10,971 nucleotides of DNA from an uncultured bacterium (GTDB taxonomy: Bacteria > Abyssobacteria > SURF-5). The position numbers and the translations under genes are program-made. Of this stretch, positions 17 to 10,971 are shown one piece after another. Position 1 is the stretch's first letter; every line of letters starts with the position of its first letter. Location: assembly GCA_964607485.1 (NCBI GenBank), contig CAZSKP010000069.1:1-10971 (forward strand), written 5' to 3'. The notes under the pieces were generated by a model, which was not told the origin of the DNA, did not search any database, and was given only the letters and a program-made list of their open reading frames with translations.

Positions 17-1947
17 TACTGTTCACCCCCGGTGGCGGCCTTCAGGAGGCGTTCTTTCGTACGCGGCCGGATGCGCGAAAGCACTATCGCCGAATTAGGA
101 CAGACCGACTTGCACGCGCCACACCGCACGCAGAGCTCTTCGTCGATGTAATAATATTCGCCTTCCTCGTCGGCGGCTTCCAGTATCGCGGGACACCCGA
201 ACTCCTTGTAACATGCGCCGCATCTCTGACATCTCTCGCGAACGATCGAGTAGCTTTCACCATATTCGGGCGGAATATACTTCTCCCGGCGATGCGACTG
301 GAGAGAGCACTCGCCCCGTGCGATTATCACGCGCAGCCCGTCGCGCTTGAGCTCGTCGGCGATTACCGACCTCAGCCGCGCGACATCGAACACGTCAACC
401 GTTCGCACCCGCCTCGCGCCGAGGCTCTTCAACAAAGCCTTCAGGTCGATTTCATCCACCGGCTGTCCCCTGACATCCTTCGAGGTCGTCGGGCTTCGCT
501 GGTGGCCGGTCATCGCTATCCATCGATTGTCGAGAACGACAAGCAGCGCATCGGCTCCGCTGGAGACGGCGTTCTGCAGGCTCTGAATGCCCGAGTGAAA
601 GAAGGTGGAGTCGCCGACAAACGTGACGAGCGGCTTGCCTTTGCTCACGTGGCTTATCCCCTGCGCGGCGCTCAGACCGCAGTTCATGCACGTGCACCAT
701 TCGGCGGCTTTGAACGGCGGCAGCGAGGCCATCGTGTAGCAGCCGATGTCGCCCCCGATGATGGCGTTGCGCTCCGTCGCGGACAGGACGGCATACACGG
801 AGGCGCGATGCGGACAGCCGATGCAGAACGTGGCAACCCGCTGCGGAATGGCGGCGGCGATCTCGTCCCCTATCGACGCCGCGCGTTTGATGTATTCCGG
901 AACCTTCTTGCCCGACACCGCGCTGAGGGCTTCGAGCACGATGTCGGGATTGGTCTCGCCCGACGGCGGAATCAATTCCTTGCCGACCACCTCGCACCTC
1001 AGCCCCAGCTCGAACGCGTGACGTTTGAGCTGGAATTCGAGGAATCCCTCGAGGTCCTCGACGACGACAATCCTCTTGAGATTCTTTCCAAATTCTTGCA
1101 GTTGCTCCGACGGGAACGGATACGTCATACCGATTTTGAAGACGGGCACGTCAAACAGCCCGAGAATTTCCAGGGCCTCCATCGCGTACAGGTAATTGAC
1201 GCTCGACGTGACGACGCCCCAGCGCGCACCGCCCCTTATAATCTTATTGAAAGCGCGCGCATCGGCCGACCGCGCCAGCGAGGCGACGCGCTCGATGCAA
1301 TTCTGATGGTTGCGCACCGCCTGTCCGAACAGGTTGAAGTAACGCTGGTAATTCGGCCTGAACTCTCCCCTGCCCTTTCGCTCGGCCACCGGCCCCAGGC
1401 GCAGGTCGCCAATGTTATGACACAGACGGGAGGGCGCATTTATCACAAATGGCAGGCTGTATTTTTCCGACAGTTCGAAGGCGGCAACGGTGAAATCCTT
1501 GGCCTCCTGTATCGTCCCGGGTTCCAGCAGCGGAAGATGCGTGTGAAGCGAATACCAGCGGTCGTCCTGTTCGCCCGTCGAGCTGGTAGCGCCGGGGTCG
1601 CTCCCGATGACGATCACAAGCCCGGCTCCGACGCCCGTGTAGCCGAGGAAATGGGCGGGCTCGGCGGCGACGTTCATCCCCACGTGCTTCATTGCCACCA
1701 TCGACCGCGCTCCGGCCCACGACGCGCCCATCGCGCCGTTGAGCGAAACGTGCTCGTTGGCGCTGTATTCCATATAGAAATCGGGCAGGCGCGACCTGAG
1801 GTTCTCGAAGGTCTGACCGATTTCGGTGGCGGGCGTGCCCGGATACATCGAGAAGTAGCCGATTCCCGCCTCGATGCCGGCGCGCGCGATGGACTCGTTG
1901 CCCATCGCGAGGATTACACCGCTTTCATTTTGCAGTAATGCTTCCAT
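16..1947 (-). CDS. iorA: Indolepyruvate (2-oxoacid):ferredoxin oxidoreductase, alpha subunit
   Basis: 643 aa. N-terminal MGNESIARG...YPGTPATEI and MKHVGMNVA motifs, FCIGCPHR and GDIGCY, TPP-binding GDSTFFHSG...LDN, and C-terminal ferredoxin-type Cys motifs (CQRCGAC...GCP; CVRCGAC..VCP). Confidence 0.92.
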   Translation of the reverse strand: MEALLQNESGVILAMGNESIARAGIEAGIGYFSMYPGTPATEIGQTFENLRSRLPDFYMEYSANEHVSLNGAMGASWAGARSMVAMKHVGMNVAAEPAHFLGYTGVGAGLVIVIGSDPGATSSTGEQDDRWYSLHTHLPLLEPGTIQEAKDFTVAAFELSEKYSLPFVINAPSRLCHNIGDLRLGPVAERKGRGEFRPNYQRYFNLFGQAVRNHQNCIERVASLARSADARAFNKIIRGGARWGVVTSSVNYLYAMEALEILGLFDVPVFKIGMTYPFPSEQLQEFGKNLKRIVVVEDLEGFLEFQLKRHAFELGLRCEVVGKELIPPSGETNPDIVLEALSAVSGKKVPEYIKRAASIGDEIAAAIPQRVATFCIGCPHRASVYAVLSATERNAIIGGDIGCYTMASLPPFKAAEWCTCMNCGLSAAQGISHVSKGKPLVTFVGDSTFFHSGIQSLQNAVSSGADALLVVLDNRWIAMTGHQRSPTTSKDVRGQPVDEIDLKALLKSLGARRVRTVDVFDVARLRSVIADELKRDGLRVIIARGECSLQSHRREKYIPPEYGESYSIVRERCQRCGACYKEFGCPAILEAADEEGEYYYIDEELCVRCGACKSVCPNSAIVLSRIRPRTKERLLKAATGGEQ

Positions 1948-2611
1948 CGAGCACCTTGTCCGGCGTGTTCACAATCAGGTTCACTCCGTCCGCCCCGGCC
2001 GATTCGGCTTCGCGCAGCGTTTTTGAAATATCCGTCACTTGTTCTTTCGGAACCGACAGGAATATCTCCTTGTCTGTCAGCCACCTGAGCTGAGGCACGG
2101 CGTCGAGAGAACCTGCGAAGAACAGGTCGGCCCCGGCTTCGAGGAACCTTTTCGCTCGCGTCACGTCCGCTTTAGTCGAGCCGCCGACGCACACCCCAAC
2201 CGTCCACGACAGCGAGGTCAGCGCCTGGGCGGTCTCTTCGCCGAAGCCGAGCGAACCGCCCTTTATCATCCGCAAGAGGGTCACCGAATCGAGCTCGTAA
2301 ACCGGTTTCGCCGCCGGAAATCGCGTGTAAAGCGGGTACGCTCCATCGGCGAGAACTACGTTCAGCAGTCCGAGGGAGGCGGCCGTGACGAGTTCCGAGT
2401 AAAGCGCGATTCGGTTCCTGTCCCTGCAGGAGACCTTCAGAAAAATCTCTTTGTCGCAAGCTTTCTTCAGCATGCCGGCAAGGACAACCGAGCTGAGCCC
2501 GCCGCTTTCCTCAAGAATCACTCCGTTAAAGTCCTCCAGGCGCGAGAGGCTCTCCACGTAACTCTCGACATCGGGCTGCAACGGAGTCTGGACTTCCACC
2601 ATCATTTTCAT
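1925..2611 (-). CDS. Methylenetetrahydrofolate reductase (MetF)-like flavoprotein, short and divergent (228 aa)
   Basis: Likely start is ATG at 2611, overlapping the metV stop (ATGA), not the ORF-track start at 3178. Contains SCRDRNRIALYSEL, AKPVYELDSVTLL, EAGAD and DGVNL, matching the MetV-associated MetF pattern (TCRDRNRxALQSDL...AKPVFDLDSVQLL). Its 3' end overlaps the iorA start by 23 nt. Confidence 0.75.
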   Translation of the reverse strand: MKMMVEVQTPLQPDVESYVESLSRLEDFNGVILEESGGLSSVVLAGMLKKACDKEIFLKVSCRDRNRIALYSELVTAASLGLLNVVLADGAYPLYTRFPAAKPVYELDSVTLLRMIKGGSLGFGEETAQALTSLSWTVGVCVGGSTKADVTRAKRFLEAGADLFFAGSLDAVPQLRWLTDKEIFLSVPKEQVTDISKTLREAESAGADGVNLIVNTPDKVLDGSITAK

Positions 2612-3276
2612 CTTTGCTTCTCTGCCTTCCGAGGAGCGCCGTCCGTTACCGGAATCCTGCGAGGCCGGACGCGCTTTCCCCAGTCCATGGGAGCGAATTC
2701 TGAATCCGAGCCGGACAGTCCCAGAGCTTCCGTGCGGTTGGCGATGCTGACCCAAACGCATTCCAATTCCGGGTCCACACTGCACTTCTCGTCCAGCTTC
2801 TCCGAGCACGGCCCGTTGAGGATTCCCTTGGGACACCGAGTCCGGGGACAGATGCCCGCCGTCCGGTTGAGGACACACTCGCCGCAGGCGTCGCAGTTCT
2901 CCAGATAATTGCCGGAGTGAATCACCGTGCCGGGGAACACGGTATCCAATCCCGTAAGGCACGGGACATCGACAGCCGACGCCACCACCTGCACGCCCGT
3001 GCCGCAGGCGAGCACGAGCACGGCCTCCACCTTTTCCAGCCGGTCGGACACGCGGCGCAGCTCGCGCGCGAGTATCCGCTGATCGCACGGCTCGTCGATC
3101 TGGAGCGTGAACACGATCTCCTTGTCGGCGAGTTCGCGAACCATTTCCTCGACCTGTTTTGTGCCGCCCGTCTGGCACACCGCCGCGCAGCCGCCGCAGC
3201 CGAAAATCGCCAGCCTGCGGTACGGCGCGACGGAAGCCCTGATCTCCTCCAGCGGTTTCTGCACAGAAATAATCAT
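2608..3276 (-). CDS. metV: MetV-type Fe-S subunit (methylene-THF reductase C-terminal domain, MTHFR_C)
   Basis: ATG at 3276 with AAGGA upstream. N-terminal MIISVQKPLEEI...GCGGCAAVCQTGG, internal ACGTGVQ, and a Cys-rich C-terminus CDACGECVL..TAGICPRTRCPKGILNGPC...C...ECVW, all typical of MetV. Confidence 0.85.
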   Translation of the reverse strand: MIISVQKPLEEIRASVAPYRRLAIFGCGGCAAVCQTGGTKQVEEMVRELADKEIVFTLQIDEPCDQRILARELRRVSDRLEKVEAVLVLACGTGVQVVASAVDVPCLTGLDTVFPGTVIHSGNYLENCDACGECVLNRTAGICPRTRCPKGILNGPCSEKLDEKCSVDPELECVWVSIANRTEALGLSGSDSEFAPMDWGKRVRPRRIPVTDGAPRKAEKQR

Positions 3277-3320
3277 GGTCGCGTCCTTAATGCTCTGGCG
3301 TACAAACAAGCGTGGTATGG

Positions 3321-3451: not shown

Positions 3452-3479
3452 GTAGGGGCGCACAGCCGTGCGCCCCTAC
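3452..3479. repeat. GTAG-type REP palindrome
   Basis: GTAGGGGCGCAC-AGCC-GTGCGCCCCTAC: a perfect 12-bp stem with GTAG/CTAC ends, the hallmark of GTAG-family REPs. Confidence 0.8.
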
Positions 3480-3538
3480 GTATCATATGTCTCTATGCAC
3501 AAATACGATTGTGACCATTTCCTAAAATGCCTGCGGTA

Positions 3539-4165
3539 TCAATCGAGCAATCCGAACAGCGTGCGAAGCTTGTCAACGAAGTATTCCGGTTTTTCCTCTT
3601 CAACTCGTCTGATGCGGCCCTGCGCAACCGTCCACTCGTCTCCGCGAAAGACAGACGTCTTGGTGACGTCGAACGTCGAGCTCTTGAGGTTCCATTTCCC
3701 ATCGTCAAATACATAAACGTCCTTCTGAATTCCCTCGTCTCGGATGAAATCCGTATCCGCCGCCGCTCTGCCCTTTGACCTCGAATAGCGGGTCTGTTGA
3801 CGCACCTTCCGGTATCGCGCCTCGGCCTTGTAAGGAGGCCGAAACGTGTCGGTAGGGGTGATGGTTATGGTCACATTGTCCGGCCCCTGGGGAAACATAT
3901 CGTAATACTTATAGTAATAAGTGACGTCACCGGAGGGCAGCGCCACCACCTGGTCTTTGTACCGTTCGCTGTTCTGGTCGAGAAATTCTATTTGCTTGGC
4001 CAACTTCATCTCCAGCGCGCGCTGGGCCTTGTCCTCGGTTAAATCCCCCTTGATGATCGGGTCGGGATTATTCGGAATGCGAGCCTTGTTGGCCGACGAG
4101 CAGCCGATGGCCAACCCCAGCAGAAGTACGACCGAGCTTCTTCGAATCGTTGCAGTAAGAGCCAT
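3539..4165 (-). CDS. Hypothetical lipoprotein
   Basis: 208 aa, ATG preceded by GGAG. The RR plus hydrophobic stretch ends in lipobox-like LAIG-C. It starts 13 bp after the kinase stop. No recognisable catalytic motif. Confidence 0.75.
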   Translation of the reverse strand: MALTATIRRSSVVLLLGLAIGCSSANKARIPNNPDPIIKGDLTEDKAQRALEMKLAKQIEFLDQNSERYKDQVVALPSGDVTYYYKYYDMFPQGPDNVTITITPTDTFRPPYKAEARYRKVRQQTRYSRSKGRAAADTDFIRDEGIQKDVYVFDDGKWNLKSSTFDVTKTSVFRGDEWTVAQGRIRRVEEEKPEYFVDKLRTLFGLLD

Positions 4166-5189: not shown

Positions 5190-5326
5190 GGCACTCCCCT
5201 GCCCCCTTATTGCCGTCCGGAGAAGCGATATTCAACTCATGTTATTGAGACCTGCCTGCATCACCAATGTCCTCATGAGGCAAACCGGCACAGGCCGATC
5301 GCTGCTTGGCTCTGCCTGCAACAGCC

Positions 5327-5405
5327 GTCATTCTGAGTGTAGCGAAGAATCTCATGCAACCCCATACTCTTGCGAAAAGAGATCCTTCGCTTTGCTCAGG
5401 ATGAC
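5327..5405. repeat. Long REP-like palindrome (GTCATTCTGAG...CTCAGGATGAC)
   Basis: 27-nt arms 5327-5353 and 5379-5405 match at 22/27 as inverted repeats, around a 25-nt spacer. Three of the five mismatches are G-U pairs on the + strand. Confidence 0.8.
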
Positions 5406-5552
5406 ACGCTTTAGGACATTGTCTTGCCGATTTCAATAAATCATATCACGAAGGGCGGAGACATTGCAACGAAAATCGGCCCAAAAGGGCCGGTGGATGG
5501 GGGATTTGGCATTCGGGCGGTTGCAGGGGCTTACATCGGTCAGAATGTTAAC

Positions 5553-5577
5553 CGCAAAGACGCTAAGAACGCAAAGG
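5553..5577 (+). repeat. CGCAAAG-type short repeat, left copy
   Basis: CGCAAAGACGCTAAGAACGCAAAGG is 23/25 identical to the reverse complement of 7207-7231 and has internal CGC(A/T)AAG periodicity. Confidence 0.7.
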
Positions 5578-5661: not shown

Positions 5662-7005
5662 TTACTCTTCCGGTTCGGTCTCCGTCGAAGCGTCGGCGCC
5701 CAGATAGGCTGAATAGATATCTATTCTTCTGGCGATCCAATCGTTGGGCTTGTGTTCATTCATTCTCTTCATGAGATCGAAGAATTGTCTGGCCTCTGCT
5801 ATGTTTCCTTGCTGACAGGCATACTTAAGCGCCCATTCCAAGTCGCCATAAGAGCAGGCTCTGCCGCTCGTCCACTCCGATGCTCCCTTGTCTGTGACGA
5901 TCCCCCTTAATAGAGCATAGGCTTTGGGTTCATCATAGCTTCTGTAATCACAGAATAAGGATCTTGTTAGGTTCTGTTTGATAATGGGCGAATGTTCTTT
6001 CTGAATAAACCGTTCCTTTTCTTCGATTGTTCTCAGAACATCTTCTTTTGGAATGAGGGCCTTTTCATATGAATTGTCGGTCACGCCGTATTTCATATAT
6101 TGCTGCAGCAAGGAATATTTCTCCTCAAAATCCTCCCTGTCTGCGAATTTCTCCCTGAACATTTCAAGCACTCCTTGATGGATTTGCCTGATCAGTTCGT
6201 TGTTTGTATTGCCGGACATCTTTTCGTGAATTTTCGCTTGAAGAGATTCGACGTCGGAATATTCTTTCACTTGCCCGCCTTCAATGCATCTGTAGAGGGA
6301 ATAGTTCAGCGCGATCGAATATTCACTGGAAAAATATGTGAACATATAATCATGATTCAAATGTCCATAGGGACTTGAGCAAAGAATAACGTATCCCAAA
6401 TCTGGGTCGAGATACATCAGAGCCACTATAGAATCGATCTCATTCAGCTCAGCGGGGCATTCTATCCGGTCCAGATTCCCCCTGATTTTTGCATTCAGCC
6501 ATGTAACGAGTTGTACGGTTGGCTCTATGCTTGACCGGGGGAATCCATGGCCAAGCTCATGAAAGGAGATTTGCAGGAATCCCGGCATGCTGCTACAGTA
6601 TGCTGATTTCGCTATGTATATGTCGCCATTGCCCCAGTTCAAGCCGGCTATTCTGAAACCTCGGGCATTCTTACCAAGCAAACCAAACAGCTTAATCACA
6701 CTTTCAGCCACGCGGACTCTCAGGGGCTTGTTGTCTTTGTCATATAACGTGAACCTAAACCGCCCTATGTCTTCCCCATGAGTCAGGTAATGAACCTCGG
6801 CCAGCAAATCGGCGACTTCCGAAATGTCATCTATCGTCGCATCCTCAACTAGTAGTGAGTAATAGTATTCCTTGTCTATCTTGCCATCCATGTTTCCCGA
6901 TATCCGTTTACCCTGTCTTGGGTAAATGAGGAGCCCCATACCCACAGCTCCTGAGAGCAAAAGGATACCTGCCGCTATGCCTATTTTTTTGACATTCTTT
7001 CTCAT
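5662..7005 (-). CDS. Hypothetical membrane-anchored or exported protein with HExxH motif (putative zinc metallopeptidase)
   Basis: 447-aa ORF. Basic N-terminus followed by a hydrophobic helix (IGIAAGILLLSGAVGMGLLIY), SFHELGHG motif, and a downstream Glu (PAELNE) as candidate third ligand. Visibly AT-richer than flanking genes (6001-6060 counted at 24/60 GC). Confidence 0.75.
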   Translation of the reverse strand: MRKNVKKIGIAAGILLLSGAVGMGLLIYPRQGKRISGNMDGKIDKEYYYSLLVEDATIDDISEVADLLAEVHYLTHGEDIGRFRFTLYDKDNKPLRVRVAESVIKLFGLLGKNARGFRIAGLNWGNGDIYIAKSAYCSSMPGFLQISFHELGHGFPRSSIEPTVQLVTWLNAKIRGNLDRIECPAELNEIDSIVALMYLDPDLGYVILCSSPYGHLNHDYMFTYFSSEYSIALNYSLYRCIEGGQVKEYSDVESLQAKIHEKMSGNTNNELIRQIHQGVLEMFREKFADREDFEEKYSLLQQYMKYGVTDNSYEKALIPKEDVLRTIEEKERFIQKEHSPIIKQNLTRSLFCDYRSYDEPKAYALLRGIVTDKGASEWTSGRACSYGDLEWALKYACQQGNIAEARQFFDLMKRMNEHKPNDWIARRIDIYSAYLGADASTETEPEE

Positions 7006-7206: not shown

Positions 7207-7231
7207 CCTTTGCGTTCTTTGCGTCTTGGCG
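7207..7231 (-). repeat. CGCAAAG-type short repeat, right copy (inverted relative to 5553-5577)
   Basis: Minus strand reads CGCCAAGACGCAAAGAACGCAAAGG and begins 9 nt after the radical SAM stop codon. Confidence 0.7.
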
Positions 7232-7240
7232 TGAAACTTT

Positions 7241-8845
7241 CTATTTTTGGGTGGGCGTGGGGATGCGGGCGACTTCGTCGATGAAGCAGAAGGGGTCGCG
7301 CTGGCTGAAGATGTCGAGGCCGAAGCTGTGGGATATGGAGAGGCAGCCGCCGCACGCCGCGCGTATGGAGCAGCCACGGCACGCGTCGCTCCCCATGCGG
7401 TAACGATTTGCCGCCTCGGAATCGTACACGCCTTCGATGCCCTGCTCGAATACGTTGCCGATGGGCGAGGGAAATTTCCTGCACGCGTGCGCCTCGCCGT
7501 CGGAGAGCACGGTGATGAAGTTGAACGCCGCCCCGCAGCCGTAGCCGGTGCAGCCGTCGAAGAGGTCCATGCCCCGCGAGCGGAGCAGTATGTTGAAGAG
7601 GTTGTCTTTGAGGCGCATGTGCGGATGCTCCTCCGAAGCGCGGAGATATTCGTCCAGAAACGAGATGAACCGTTCGCGCTCGGGAAGGTGGAGCTTCGCG
7701 CCTTCGCCGACCATCGAAAGGCGATTGAAGTTGAACGACTTCGTGAGTCCCTCAAGCTCAAGCGCGAGAGGGATGACGTCGTCGATGTTGTCTCTGGTGA
7801 CGGTGACCATCACCATCGAGTACACTCCCAGCTCCTTGAGGAGCCTGAGAAACCGCACCGCCCGCCCGTGATATCCCTTGCCGCGTATTCTGTCGTTTTC
7901 CGGCTCGAGGCCCTCGAAGCTTATCTGAAAAAACGACGGCACGCTGATGGCGAGTATTTCCTCAAGCCTCTTCCGCGACGTGGGGTTTCCGAGGATGCCG
8001 ACCTGAAACCCCATATCCACCGTACGGCGGTACAGTTCGTTGAAACGGGGATACAGGAGCGGATTCCCGCCGGAGAACGTCACCTGGCCGGAGACGTTCA
8101 GCTTCCTGCAGAAAGTTTTGAGGTCATCCAGCACGGCGAACGCCGTTTCGAGGGGCATCGGCGCGCGGTCGCTGCGGTCGTAGCAGTGCAGACACCGGAG
8201 GTCGCACGTCTGCGTGATGTGCCACTGAATTGTAAAGACGCCGACGCTCAAGAACTCCTCGCGCGCGCCTTCCACCGTTGTAAACACGGCAGGGTCGCGC
8301 CGAATGAGAGACGGAGGCGTCAGGATGAGTCCCATTTCCTCGCCCTGTGCAATGATGTGTTCCACCGTATCCACAGGGAGTCCCCCGATACGAGCCGCCT
8401 CCTCTGGCGCAATCTCCTCCACCGCCATCTTCAGCACCAGCAGGTCTTCGTCGGTGGCCGGACGGATGTAAACCTCGCCCGATTTCGGTCCCTTCCACAC
8501 GAGGACCCTCTCCGCTCCCTCCTCCGGCCCTGCGGCCACGGAGCCGCTTTCAGAAGGAAGCAGCGAGCACAGGTTTTTCCAGGAAAGTTCCAGCAGCCTG
8601 AGGGTTGGATTCACCTCAGGCGCCTGCGCTTCTGCATTGGCGGGCGCGTCGGAGGTCTTCACCTCGTGATACGCCCATTCGAGGCGCGCAAGCTCTGCGG
8701 CAAACCCGGGCGCTGCTTCGATTGACGCCAGCGCTTCGGGAAACCGCTCCGGCCCACCTTCGCAGAGCGCGACGGCCTTCTTCCAGACGTTCTCCTTAAT
8801 TATGGAGCGACAGGCGGGATACACCTCTTCAATCGTGTCATTCAT
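7241..8845 (-). CDS. sbtM: Radical SAM/SPASM peptide maturase, SbtM (selenobiotic / thio(seleno)oxazole) family
   Basis: Likely start ATG 8845 (534 aa; in-frame start at 8899 is possible). QWHITQTCDLRCLHCYDRS (CxxxCxxC), FSGGNP, and SPASM cysteines GCTGYGCGAAFNF...ACRKF...CRGC...CGGC...DPFC. About 200-aa N-terminal extension. Directly downstream of an SbtA-like peptide. Confidence 0.88.
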   Translation of the reverse strand: MNDTIEEVYPACRSIIKENVWKKAVALCEGGPERFPEALASIEAAPGFAAELARLEWAYHEVKTSDAPANAEAQAPEVNPTLRLLELSWKNLCSLLPSESGSVAAGPEEGAERVLVWKGPKSGEVYIRPATDEDLLVLKMAVEEIAPEEAARIGGLPVDTVEHIIAQGEEMGLILTPPSLIRRDPAVFTTVEGAREEFLSVGVFTIQWHITQTCDLRCLHCYDRSDRAPMPLETAFAVLDDLKTFCRKLNVSGQVTFSGGNPLLYPRFNELYRRTVDMGFQVGILGNPTSRKRLEEILAISVPSFFQISFEGLEPENDRIRGKGYHGRAVRFLRLLKELGVYSMVMVTVTRDNIDDVIPLALELEGLTKSFNFNRLSMVGEGAKLHLPERERFISFLDEYLRASEEHPHMRLKDNLFNILLRSRGMDLFDGCTGYGCGAAFNFITVLSDGEAHACRKFPSPIGNVFEQGIEGVYDSEAANRYRMGSDACRGCSIRAACGGCLSISHSFGLDIFSQRDPFCFIDEVARIPTPTQK

Positions 8846-8928
8846 GGCGTGTCTTCTATGGCATTCTGGTGTCGGGGCGGAAGCGCTACCAGATGTCACA
8901 GGTTATACTCATCATTTTCCCACAGAAA

Positions 8929-8967
8929 TCACCTTTTGTCAGAGTTATCTGACGCTGGTGAAGCGTC
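8929..8967 (-). other. Overlapping hairpins between precursor and maturase
   Basis: Stem 8938-8943/8948-8953 (extendable by 8929-8933/8957-8961) and alternative stem 8951-8956/8962-8967. No U-tract follows on the minus strand. Confidence 0.45.
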
Positions 8968-8976
8968 CGGCAAAGA

Positions 8977-9204
8977 CTATTTTCCCTTACAGGAACTTCC
9001 GGAGCAGGAACCTGCGGAGCAAGAGGTCTTCGCAGGGTCGGGAGTCTTCCCCGTACAGGAGGTCTTCTCCTGAGTCTTTCCCGTGCAGGAGGTGCACGAA
9101 CTCTTGCGGTGAGTTGCACAGCCGCTCGTGGTGAGCGAGGCGCCCGCAAGCAGGCCCACAATGCTCACTCCGGCAAGAATCTTCTTCAGGTCTTTCGTAT
9201 CCAT
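8977..9204 (-). CDS. sbtA: SbtA-family RiPP precursor peptide (radical SAM target), all-Cys form, 75 aa
   Basis: GGAGG SD 7 nt before ATG 9204. MDTKDLKKILAGVSIVGLLAGASL leader typical of the family, a core with six Ser-Cys dipeptides, TAG stop, adjacent to an SbtM-like radical SAM gene. Confidence 0.88.
   Translation of the reverse strand: MDTKDLKKILAGVSIVGLLAGASLTTSGCATHRKSSCTSCTGKTQEKTSCTGKTPDPAKTSCSAGSCSGSSCKGK
9042..9093. repeat. Intragenic direct repeat (30-nt period) encoding TSCTGKT twice
   Basis: 9042-9063 and 9072-9093 are 20/22 identical, with both differences synonymous. A third partial KTSC unit follows. Confidence 0.8.
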
Positions 9205-9375
9205 CCACAATCCTCCAGAATTTCGTCACTTCAGACTGGCACTTCCGCCCTTCAACACCATAAACCGAACTTTAGCATCAAGAAGGTGCTTCCGCTAGGC
9301 GGATTCGTGCAGCGGCATAAATGATGAGGGCCTGTTGTCTAAACGATTCCCCATGCAACAACGTTCCCCTGCCTC

Positions 9376-9489
9376 GTCATTGCGAGGAGCAAAGAGCTGC
9401 AAGCTCGGGCGACGAAGCAATCCCGAGACTATTGGGAAGACGCGTCCGAGATTGCTTCGGTCGAGTCTGTGACTCTCCCTCGCAATGAC
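9376..9489. repeat. Branched palindromic element (GTCATTGCGAGG...CGAAGCAATC / GATTGCTTCG...CCTCGCAATGAC)
   Basis: Perfect 12-bp outer stem (9376-9387/9478-9489), perfect 10-bp inner stem (9413-9422/9450-9459), and side hairpins GAGCT-GCA-AGCTC (9394-9406) and GAGTC-TGT-GACTC (9463-9475). Confidence 0.85.
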
Positions 9490-9553
9490 TTCAAACCATT
9501 TTCGCAATAAGCCGGTGAGCGTTAAGACTGTCACAAGAGAGAGACAGCCCGAA

Positions 9554-10971
9554 TCATTTGGGCGGGACGGGATTGTGGCAGGCGAAGAAGTGCGCGGGCG
9601 TGTGCTCGATCAGCCCGGGGACGACGCTGCTGCAAACGGGCAGCGCGTTGAAACAACGGGGGTGGAAGCTGCATCCGGGCGGCGGATTTATCGGAGAGGG
9701 AACGTCGCCGGGCAGCAGTATTCGTTTGCGTTTGTGCTCGGGGTCGGGCACCGGAATGGCCGACATCAACGCGACGGTGTACGGATGCCGCGGGCCGCTA
9801 TAGAGCTCCTCGCTCGCCGCCAGCTCCACGATTTTTCCCAAGTACATGACGGCCACGCGGCTGCTGATGTTCTCGACGACCCTGAGATCGTGCGCTATGA
9901 ACAGATACGAGATTCCGTACTCGGTCTGCAGGTCTTTGAGCAGATTGATTATCTGCGCCTGAATCGAGACGTCGAGCGCAGAGACGGGCTCGTCGCACAC
10001 GATGAAGCGCGGGTTCAGCGCCAGTGTGCGCGCTATCCCTATGCGCTGTCTTTGGCCGCCGCTGAATTCATGCGGATACCGTTCCAAGTGTTCGCCCGAC
10101 AGGCCCACTCGCTCGAGCAGTTGTGCGACCCGTTCGCGCCGCTCCCTGCCCTCGGCGAGCTTGTGGACCGTCATCGGCTCGCCGATTATGTTCTCGATGT
10201 TCATGCGCGGATTGAGCGAGCCGAACGGGTCCTGGAATATTATCTGCATCTCCTTGCGCATGACGCGCAGTTCGCTTTCGGAGAGCGTCTCGAGGGGCAG
10301 CCCGTCGAAAAAGACGCGGCCGTCGGTGGGCGGAATCAGCCGCAGGATTGTTCTTCCGAGAGTCGTTTTGCCGCAGCCGCTCTCGCCGACAAGCCCCAGC
10401 GTCTCGCCCGGCTTGACGAAGAGGCTGATGTCGTCCACCGCCCTGACGTATTCCTTCACCCTCGAAAACACTCCCGCTCGAACCGGGAAATATTTCTTGA
10501 GGTCGTCAACGCGCAGCAGAACGTCGTCGAGCGGTTCCAGCAGTTTCTGCTCCACATAGCGCTCCTTTATCGAGGCAACCGTTATGGTCGGACTTTTCAC
10601 CGGCGACCTGACCAGCACATAGAAAATCTGGAAGAGCAACCACGGGACGAGCGCCGGAAGGGCGAACACCAGCGCCGCCGCGGGCCACAGCACCGCGTTC
10701 ATGCCCCTCGACTTGCAGTCGTCGTACGTGTAAAACGCGATGTACCCCGGCACCGACAGCACCGCGCAGAGAATCGGCCAGAATATGCGGCAGTGTCCCC
10801 TCTCGATTGCCCGGTAGTAGGCATAGTAGCAGAGGAGTCCGTTGAGCGCTCCGAAGAAGCCTCCGACAAGAAACGCGACGACTGCCCATTTGATGTGCGG
10901 GCGGCGGTTGTGCCGCGCATCAACAAGCACCCAGTAGGCAAACGCCATCGCCAGAGCGGAGTTGACGCTCA
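9554..10971 (-). CDS. Oligopeptide/dipeptide ABC transporter ATP-binding protein (OppF/DppF/AppF type) with in-frame N-terminal membrane region; 5'-partial
   Basis: Walker A GESGCGKT, Q-loop IFQDP, signature FSGGQRQR, Walker B IVCDEP, H-loop AHDL, and a C-terminal HPYT...GCSFHPRC...C...ACH domain. The frame stays open to the window edge. A possible internal start is GTG 10555, after AAGGAG. Confidence 0.9.
   Translation of the reverse strand, partial: SVNSALAMAFAYWVLVDARHNRRPHIKWAVVAFLVGGFFGALNGLLCYYAYYRAIERGHCRIFWPILCAVLSVPGYIAFYTYDDCKSRGMNAVLWPAAALVFALPALVPWLLFQIFYVLVRSPVKSPTITVASIKERYVEQKLLEPLDDVLLRVDDLKKYFPVRAGVFSRVKEYVRAVDDISLFVKPGETLGLVGESGCGKTTLGRTILRLIPPTDGRVFFDGLPLETLSESELRVMRKEMQIIFQDPFGSLNPRMNIENIIGEPMTVHKLAEGRERRERVAQLLERVGLSGEHLERYPHEFSGGQRQRIGIARTLALNPRFIVCDEPVSALDVSIQAQIINLLKDLQTEYGISYLFIAHDLRVVENISSRVAVMYLGKIVELAASEELYSGPRHPYTVALMSAIPVPDPEHKRKRILLPGDVPSPINPPPGCSFHPRCFNALPVCSSVVPGLIEHTPAHFFACHNPVPPK

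Follow-up and report, generated by a model that had tools for sequence, protein, structure and literature searches.

An SbtA precursor peptide and an SbtM radical S-adenosylmethionine (SAM) maturase, encoded side by side, raise the question of what such a gene pair makes and where its product works. The chemistry of SbtM has been known since 2021, while the finished product and its job have not, as far as the account in PMC9204691 goes. We address the question for one locus in a stretch of 10,971 nucleotides (contig CAZSKP010000069.1, here called the window) from an uncultured bacterium of the Abyssobacteria, lineage SURF-5. Our answer, offered tentatively, is a self-contained two-gene cassette that would make a lipid-anchored poly-thiooxazole peptide without oxygen, the peptide most likely binding metals.

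The gene pair and its family

Both genes lie on the minus strand, the 75-codon sbtA (8977..9204) upstream and, after 131 bp, the 534-codon sbtM (7241..8845). Each is present in one copy in the genome. SbtA scores 45.9 bits against the NCBIfam model TIGR04081 (cut-off 30.5), with the match covering residues 1-26, and SbtM scores 693 bits against TIGR04082 (cut-off 350). The gene order is that of the known pair, sbtM lies directly downstream of the precursor at all loci studied, and the radical SAM and SPASM Cys are intact. By these scores the window holds a genuine member of the known two-gene family, as an earlier note on this DNA had assigned it before any search.

The family survey comprised 127 loci: 45 SbtM loci from genomes, 80 from metagenomes, the window locus and one more. 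A leader profile, with TGA taken as selenocysteine (Sec), picked up 98 precursors, of which 85 are distinct, at 97 of the loci. At the other 30 loci, many of them short, the leader profile found no precursor. Six loci (L022, L029, L045, L050, L086, L113) have 4-5 kb upstream of sbtM, yet this profile gives no precursor there. The hosts are mainly Desulfobacterota and Nitrospirota, with one Spirochaetota. In the host class, sbtM occurs in 1 of 11 genomes, that of the window only, so the cassette is patchy. A plasmid collection searched for SbtM at E 1e-40 gave no match.

Leader and probable lipid anchor

Residues 1-28 of SbtA (9121..9204, minus strand) form the leader, predicted to double as a lipoprotein signal peptide cleaved by signal peptidase II. 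Its Lys-rich start (K4, K7, K8) is followed by 20 uncharged residues ending in LTTSG-C29, with a best 7-residue hydropathy of 2.76, and it fits the relaxed lipoprotein pattern of a basic n-region, an uncharged h-region and a Cys at 15-35. The earlier note had described these features, and the six Ser-Cys pairs that follow them, exactly. A basic start and a hydrophobic stretch recur in every one of the 98 precursors.

Support for a lipobox comes from conservation among the homologues and not from the pattern match. Counted in residues from the KK of the leader, a boxed Cys stands at offset 21-25 in 25 of the 85 distinct precursors, and at exactly 22 in 23 of them; L048 (Cys at offset 22) and L053 (offset 24) are classed as non-lipobox by our rule. 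Variants of the box include LSGC, LTGC, MTGC, VAGC, LPAC and TSGC. The codon of the boxed Cys is always TGT or TGC (TGT in the window, 9118..9120, minus strand) and never TGA, and none of the distinct precursors has Sec before offset 27. In the 24 lipobox precursors besides that of the window the cores hold 56 Sec and 5 Cys, the latter all terminal Asn-Cys of one clade. Lgt requires a Cys thiol, which would explain why the box is always Cys while the cores are mostly Sec. Conservation across homologues, which the earlier note had named as a check, thus sets this position apart from the core sites.

The non-lipobox class has LPGA, VPGA or LPSA in the same columns in 28 precursors, often as LPGA then HA, and an Ala-x-Ala signal peptidase I site in 37 of the 58 anchored sequences. 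Because the box columns align with LPGA, VPGA and LPSA, a single substitution would swap the two export signals. With either a lipobox or Ala-x-Ala at the same place, the homologues support the earlier suggestion that the leader doubles as an export signal. Locus L111 carries tandem precursors (1037-1226 and 1537-1850), one of the lipobox and one of the signal peptidase I type, with a single sbtM, and is a natural pair for testing the anchor.

The lipobox is retained in lineages with an SbtM that shares only 43-57% identity with that of the window, and the class spans deep branches of the SbtM tree, which is a quick tree. A search of 1.84 billion representative sequences gave 292 matches, of which the best 150 were taken and 141 parsed. 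A boxed Cys is found in 108 of the 141 (offset 22 in 99), a share biased upward since 11 of the 13 query sequences were of the lipobox type. The 108 have Gly at -1 in 95 cases and Thr at -3 in 12, most of the others having L, V, I or M there; in two, the Cys is at offset 26 and probably belongs to the core. In the host, lspA, lgt, lnt, BamA and LolA all score over their model cut-offs, and Thr stands at -3 in 4 of its 55 lipoprotein-like N-termini. The contig belongs to this host genome, since its repeats recur on other contigs. Taken together, the homologues and host genes make Cys29 a very probable lipid anchor.

Core sites and selenium

The core (residues 30-75; 8980..9117, minus strand) contains exactly six Cys (C37, C40, C50, C62, C67, C72), all preceded by Ser and predicted to become 5-thiooxazoles. 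Six Ser-Cys pairs were reproduced in 2 of 100,000 shuffles of these residues. The small-residue context is Ser-Cys here and Gly-, Ser- or Ala-Sec in the relatives, where Ser-Sec accounts for 31 sites. Because the nearest SbtM relatives (L010 and L011, 56-57% identity) carry Ser-Sec at every core site, the Ser-Cys of the window are read as sulfur equivalents.

The Sec features of the characterised SbtA, GGUG/SGUG with an insertion hairpin, are absent from the window precursor, which has no TGA. Sec is not needed for family membership, since Cys-type members are named SbtA by NCBI (WP_319394983.1). Among the 85 distinct precursors from the loci, 84 carry at least one Sec, and that of the window is the only Sec-free one; where a Sec-bearing precursor ends was decided by rule of thumb. 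Of 204 UGA sites, 131 are followed by a GCAGGT-type hairpin motif, against none of the six core Cys in the window. Folding energy does not tell lipobox Cys (mean z -1.62) from Sec codons (-1.78); the sequence motif alone does. We rejected the idea that missing machinery forced the loss of Sec. The all-Cys state is not forced, because the host encodes selA, selB, tRNA-Sec and a TGA-bearing selD.

In L010, L011 and L013 the last UGA stands one codon ahead of the stop and the insertion hairpin lies in 3' untranslated DNA, a placement that is eukaryote-like except for coming immediately after the UGA codon. Six public proteins (P0011, P0016, P0027, P0049, P0130, P0132) have SbtA Sec codons rendered as Trp by the gene caller, and many other public SbtA proteins end at the first UGA.

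The window peptide and the representatives together give 31 all-Cys forms with at least three core Cys, 24 of them with a lipobox, counted on the peptide sequence alone. The cluster of one of these forms includes a RefSeq protein that is named SbtA and comes from an uncultured Desulfobacter. Judged by these sequences, lipobox all-Cys SbtA peptides are common. [quoted passage not shown]

Ser precedes 112 of the 145 core Cys in the 31 all-Cys forms. Their sites are spaced 3-6 residues apart, whereas those of Sec forms are nearly all at least 14 apart, with three closer pairs; such dense packing is open to sites that need no insertion hairpin. CGxGxCG, which has the spacing of oxazolin repeats, is found in 6 of the 31. 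Enrichment of spacing 5 is borderline, with 16 observed against a mean of 8.1 and a maximum of 17 in a shuffle that ignores repeats.

The maturase and its partner domain

SbtM has three radical SAM and eight SPASM Cys, and none of these 11 cluster-type Cys varies in any of the 51 aligned rows. The radical SAM core (7766..8218, minus strand; Pfam PF04055, residues 210-360) contains the CxxxCxxC motif C214, C218, C221, and the SPASM region (7286..7552, minus strand; Pfam PF13186, TIGR04085) contains the eight others, C432-C520. Ahead of them, about residues 1-190 (8276..8845, minus strand) form a domain with a helical part and a RiPP recognition element (RRE) fold, related to the NGO1945/HvfC/BufC type of partner proteins that accompany multinuclear non-heme iron oxidative enzymes (MNIOs).

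The model of this domain has a pLDDT of 92. Its best structural match is 3DEE, NGO1945 (Foldseek E 3e-6, TM 0.63; Z 14.1, rmsd 3.4, 164 aligned), and the next are TglI (Z 11.7) and then plain RREs. According to PMC12668002, 3DEE is the partner protein for the thiooxazole peptide gonophorin, and such partners are described as accompanying signal-bearing precursors, where they may mask the signal until modification is complete (PMC12452194).

By sequence, the first 190 residues match the HvfC model NF050145 weakly (E 0.0012; 4 of 49 members match, best 8e-6), and a search of the PDB with the N-terminal SbtM profile gave nothing significant. When this profile was aligned by HHalign with 14 DUF2063 proteins from other genomes, 11 of them encoded next to an MNIO or fused with one, 187 columns matched at 98.7% and E 3e-16; column-shuffled controls stayed below 1%. 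The DUF2063 set, from which one short row had been excluded, had 16 rows initially, and two wrong-frame rows were dropped. By profile and model, this part of SbtM is a homologue of the proteins that partner MNIOs. Its first helices are missing, as is the Pfam DUF2063 signature, which makes it a relative and not a type-1 partner by definition. The shared domain strengthens the kinship of logic with oxazolins and bufferins that the earlier note had drawn.

A predicted complex of the domain with SbtA 1-45 scored 0.49, compared with 0.02 for the best of three controls, with at least 91% contact agreement between runs and a partner pLDDT of at least 54. In the benchmark, 116 of 157 solved pairs reached the mark, as did 2 of 215 mismatched ones; scores of 0.60 or below account for only 18 of the 157 and for both mismatches, so that low passes are more often wrong unless the complex is likely beforehand. 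The score may also reflect likeness, because RRE-leader complexes have already been solved. The predicted complex therefore gives weak support to binding of the leader, and it yields no interface.

MNIO (PF05114) is absent from the host genome, which is 97.5% complete, and is found in 1 of 44 SbtM-bearing genomes, many of them incomplete, a rarity expected for anaerobes. The single MNIO-like match sits among open reading frames (ORFs) that by eye resemble aminotransferases and dehydrogenases. At L164 (433-2193) an MNIO and a DUF2063 partner are fused in one frame, the mirror of the partner fusion in SbtM.

Proposed route and function

We propose a route that starts in the cytoplasm, where the partner/RRE domain fused to SbtM would hold SbtA by the leader that is also its signal peptide. 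The radical SAM/SPASM part would then oxidise core Ser-Cys to 5-thiooxazole at up to six sites, with a change of -4 Da each. Thio(seleno)oxazole formation is reported for another SbtM on Gly-Cys/Sec (PMC9204691, PMC11002830), and we infer the same chemistry for the window pair. Jointly, we consider these two steps highly probable. Cys29 would be spared, and upon export by the general secretory pathway Lgt would add the diacylglycerol, LspA would remove residues 1-28 and Lnt would N-acylate the new N-terminus; with Ala at +2, Lol transport would probably take the product to the outer membrane. Conservation and the host genes make this sparing, lipidation and export very likely as well. Finally, pairs of thiooxazoles in the tethered 47-residue product would bind soft metals, Cu(I) and perhaps also Hg or Ag. 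If the preceding steps are granted, we see the prospects of metal binding in the manner of bufferins and oxazolins as evenly balanced. The case for chelation would be one of analogy, since the ring, the partner module and the signal logic match those of Cu(I)-binding peptides; thiooxazole peptides are reported to bind Cu(I) very tightly (PMC11626156, PMC12668002).

Several observations weigh against this proposal. The relaxed lipoprotein pattern discriminates weakly, since in many non-lipobox relatives it matches at the first Sec, while Thr at -3 (TSGC) departs from the strict lipobox [LVI][ASTVI][GAS]C. The 25 lipobox precursors are not independent, because the SbtM tree requires just 2-3 label changes and is compatible with a single lipobox origin. 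Many hosts live in niches where sulfide keeps free Cu at a low level, and the wide spacing in the Sec forms offers no pre-organised chelating pair. Of the 503 neighbours, 94 were scanned at a threshold of E 1e-12 and gave no copper ATPase, Mer protein or metal regulator, and a dyad search in 53 independent upstream regions found no conserved operator. Pfam DUF2063 is detected in only 2 of 49 SbtM N-terminal domains, and weakly (best E 0.12), and type-2 partners such as TglI are described as serving signal-less precursors. Gly-Cys29 is itself of the motif type reported to be modified by SbtM (PMC9204691), and nothing found here explains its sparing. The overall reading of the earlier note stands for the family, the export and the lipobox Cys; its metal role does not gain from the loci, as no conserved metal-resistance gene or operator lies near sbtAM.

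A serious rival to metal binding keeps the same biosynthesis and anchor and makes the product an envelope redox agent, its aromatic thiols or selenols, carried on an azole ring, scavenging peroxide, oxygen or polysulfide in anaerobes; ovothiol and selenoneine are the compounds for comparison. The heavy use of Sec in the family and the wide spacing of its sites leave room for such a role or for Hg capture. Sec is usually retained for redox chemistry, and here it occurs in 84 of the 85 precursors, with 131 of the 204 UGA codons having their own insertion motif and the sites of Sec forms standing far apart. The hosts, mainly Desulfobacterota and Nitrospirota with a Spirochaetota, and the lack of metal genes nearby would also suit it, and MNIO/partner clusters have been tied to oxidative stress too (PMC12668002). 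However, redox genes are not conserved nearby either, and Cu is bound by every characterised 5-thiooxazole peptide with binding data among the accounts examined. The packing of all-Cys sites at 3-6 residues and the retention of six Cys in a host with selA, selB, selD and tRNA-Sec also speak against it, and we judge the redox role unlikely.

Other alternatives concern the product itself. Cys29 could be a seventh modification site, or signal peptidase I could cleave the leader, and the product would then be a soluble periplasmic peptide. Ser-Gly-Cys fits the SG[U/C] core motif of the family and the Gly-Cys motif reported as modified, Thr stands at -3, and 60 of the 85 relatives have no lipobox, the anchor being dispensable for the family. 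Yet the position is never Sec although the cores hold 56 Sec and 5 Cys, and it keeps a fixed distance from the leader KK (99 of 141 at offset 22) while core sites wander. The core sites of the window, L010 and L011 are all preceded by Ser, with Gly preceding only the boxed Cys, and Cys29 aligns with the small residue of the LPGA-HA signal peptidase I region; a seventh site is thus improbable. Quite improbable, too, is a lipoprotein that works, with no or partial modification, as a Cys-rich binder of the metallothionein kind, either because export outruns SbtM or because SbtM rejects Ser-Cys. In the accounts examined SbtM modification is reported only on Gly-Cys/Sec and a signal peptide competes with cytoplasmic modification, but SbtM is intact, with 11 cluster Cys, and directly downstream at all loci studied, Ser-Sec is frequent in relatives (31 sites), and lipidated DybA and NedA are reported as modified in time (PMC13056109). 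The old name 'selenobacteriocin', used in PMC13188914, would instead imply a bacteriocin or signalling peptide freed after leader removal. A core that is small and cationic (the 47-mer has a net charge of +6) and the patchy distribution (1 of 11 host-class genomes) would suit this; immunity gene, exporter, protease and sensor are, on the other hand, not conserved, the low-complexity spacers of most relatives are acidic or mixed and vary greatly in length, and a lipid anchor would tether the peptide. We consider a bacteriocin very improbable.

Comparison with known systems

The characterised SbtA is described with a Gly-Cys/Sec substrate (GGUG) and two Sec, whereas that of the window carries a lipobox and six Ser-Cys and lacks Sec. 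The passages on SbtA/SbtM examined in PMC9204691 and PMC11002830 say nothing of a biological function, nor of a signal peptide, a lipid anchor or a partner-type domain.

The diacylglycerol-anchored RiPPs (DAG-RiPPs) lipo-DybAH and lipo-NedABC described in PMC13056109 resemble the window system, as predicted here, in combining a signal peptidase II signal with an extra conserved Cys in a RiPP precursor, and in modification in the cytoplasm followed by export; NedA has three -4 Da Cys sites. They are made by oxygen-using MNIO enzymes, whereas the enzyme of the window is a radical SAM protein, and lipidation is demonstrated for them and predicted here (PMC13056109). Unlike DAG-RiPPs, many SbtA relatives would be selenium lipopeptides. 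The mining in that paper (Chen et al. PNAS 2026) covers MNIOs and autoinducing peptides, and its authors anticipate further DAG-RiPPs; the terms 'SbtA', 'SbtM' and 'radical SAM' are absent from its main text. The window locus probably has what defines a DAG-RiPP in sequence, a maturase whose neighbouring precursor carries a lipoprotein signal together with one more conserved Cys.

The captophorins (bufferins, oxazolin, fontiphorin, gonophorin and bulbicupramide; PMC11626156, PMC12668002, PMC12452194, PMC12538549) are described with the same 5-thiooxazole ring, a signal-bearing Cys-repeat precursor, a minimal gene set and a homologous partner/RRE domain, and some, about 16% of Buf2, are predicted lipoproteins. 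They use an MNIO with a separate DUF2063 partner and O2, in contrast to the radical SAM enzyme SbtM with its fused partner fold lacking the Pfam DUF2063 signature. Their reported motifs are Lys-Cys/EGKCG, those of SbtA Ser/Gly-Cys/Sec, and Cu binding and induction are demonstrated for captophorins, whereas for the window SbtA they would follow by analogy alone. The window pair is an SbtA/SbtM member, probably a DAG-RiPP, captophorin-like in working and not a captophorin.

A literature search found no account of SbtA as exported or lipidated, or of SbtM with a partner domain, a provisional result as the 2021/2011 primary papers and the PNAS supplements were outside the search. A radical-SAM-made, lipid-anchored thiooxazole peptide built on a captophorin partner module is thus a reading that we did not find in print, and the anatomy of the locus supports it.

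Genomic neighbourhood

No exporter, protease or immunity gene is present in the window and none is conserved across the 80 related loci; the earlier note had likewise seen no dedicated exporter. When 503 neighbouring ORFs were clustered, no real family occurred in more than 9 of the 80 loci, the largest clusters being antisense shadow frames of sbtA, and the 94 neighbours scanned with Pfam are housekeeping and unrelated genes. The upstream dyad search yielded only Shine-Dalgarno and -35-like words, close to the shuffle maximum, and a sigma-54-like match was found in 1 of 81 upstream regions. This lack of conserved neighbours and operator fits a cassette that relies on general export and argues against a bacteriocin.

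A Shine-Dalgarno-like GGAGG (9212..9216, minus strand) stands 7 bases ahead of the sbtA ATG. The stretch 8914-8970 (minus strand) holds a hairpin directly 3' of the sbtA stop and, in the gap before sbtM, a weak sigma-70-like site with an extended -10 (8942-8914), with two promoter-like matches against 0.7 expected. The hairpin and this site may give a high ratio of precursor to enzyme.

The flanks carry an OppF-like ATPase, a low-GC 447-residue gene, a GHMP kinase, and genes for methylenetetrahydrofolate reductase (MTHFR)-like proteins and indolepyruvate oxidoreductase, all of which are outside the sbtAM system. The 447-residue gene (5662-7005, minus strand), downstream of sbtM, is single-copy and has an N-terminal hydrophobic stretch and no clear family. 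We tried it as a member of the system and rejected it, as 124 SbtM loci have no homologue. Its GC is 0.458 against 0.574 for the genome, and it is framed, at 5542-5577 and 7207-7242, by 36-nt copies (83%), inverted to each other, of a short repeat that has about 10 copies in the genome; the region looks like a foreign insertion just past sbtM. Palindromic intergenic repeats at 9376-9490, 5325-5407 and 3452-3480 have about 34, 25 and 71 genome copies, and one lies immediately upstream of sbtA. At 9554-10948 (minus strand) an OppF/DppF-type ATPase frame has about 130 hydrophobic residues in frame ahead of it, from a fusion or a read-through upstream gene. A split MTHFR-like pair (1925-3279, minus strand), a DUF5981 Fe-S subunit and a divergent MetF-like one, lies directly before the indolepyruvate oxidoreductase alpha gene. 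Behind the HddA-like GHMP kinase there is a 208-residue lipoprotein-like gene (LAIG-C; 3539-4165, minus strand) without a family.

Significance

The comparisons give a testable model in which SbtA is exported, is lipid-anchored in a large subfamily, and depends on a partner module common with copper-binding thiooxazole peptides. The all-Cys copy is convenient to express because the selenium machinery is not required. If true, the model would extend the lipid-anchored RiPPs past the MNIO enzymes, a step that PMC13056109 only anticipates. It would also be an exception to the view, put forward in PMC12668002, that partner proteins serve MNIOs almost only.

It is conceivable, though we hold it loosely, that SbtA/SbtM is the captophorin branch of anaerobes, in which an ancestral signal-binding partner/RRE module was coupled to a radical SAM enzyme that makes the same ring without O2. 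Much of the family, with the window locus among its members, would then be the first lipid-anchored RiPPs to be made by radical SAM enzymes. Relatives with Sec would be selenooxazole lipopeptides anchored in the membrane, where they would trap Cu or Hg at the envelope of sulfate reducers and related bacteria. Export and anchor, as predicted here, point to a possible role in metal binding or oxidant handling at the cell envelope of anaerobes, which would bear on the handling of metals and mercury in anoxic sediments.

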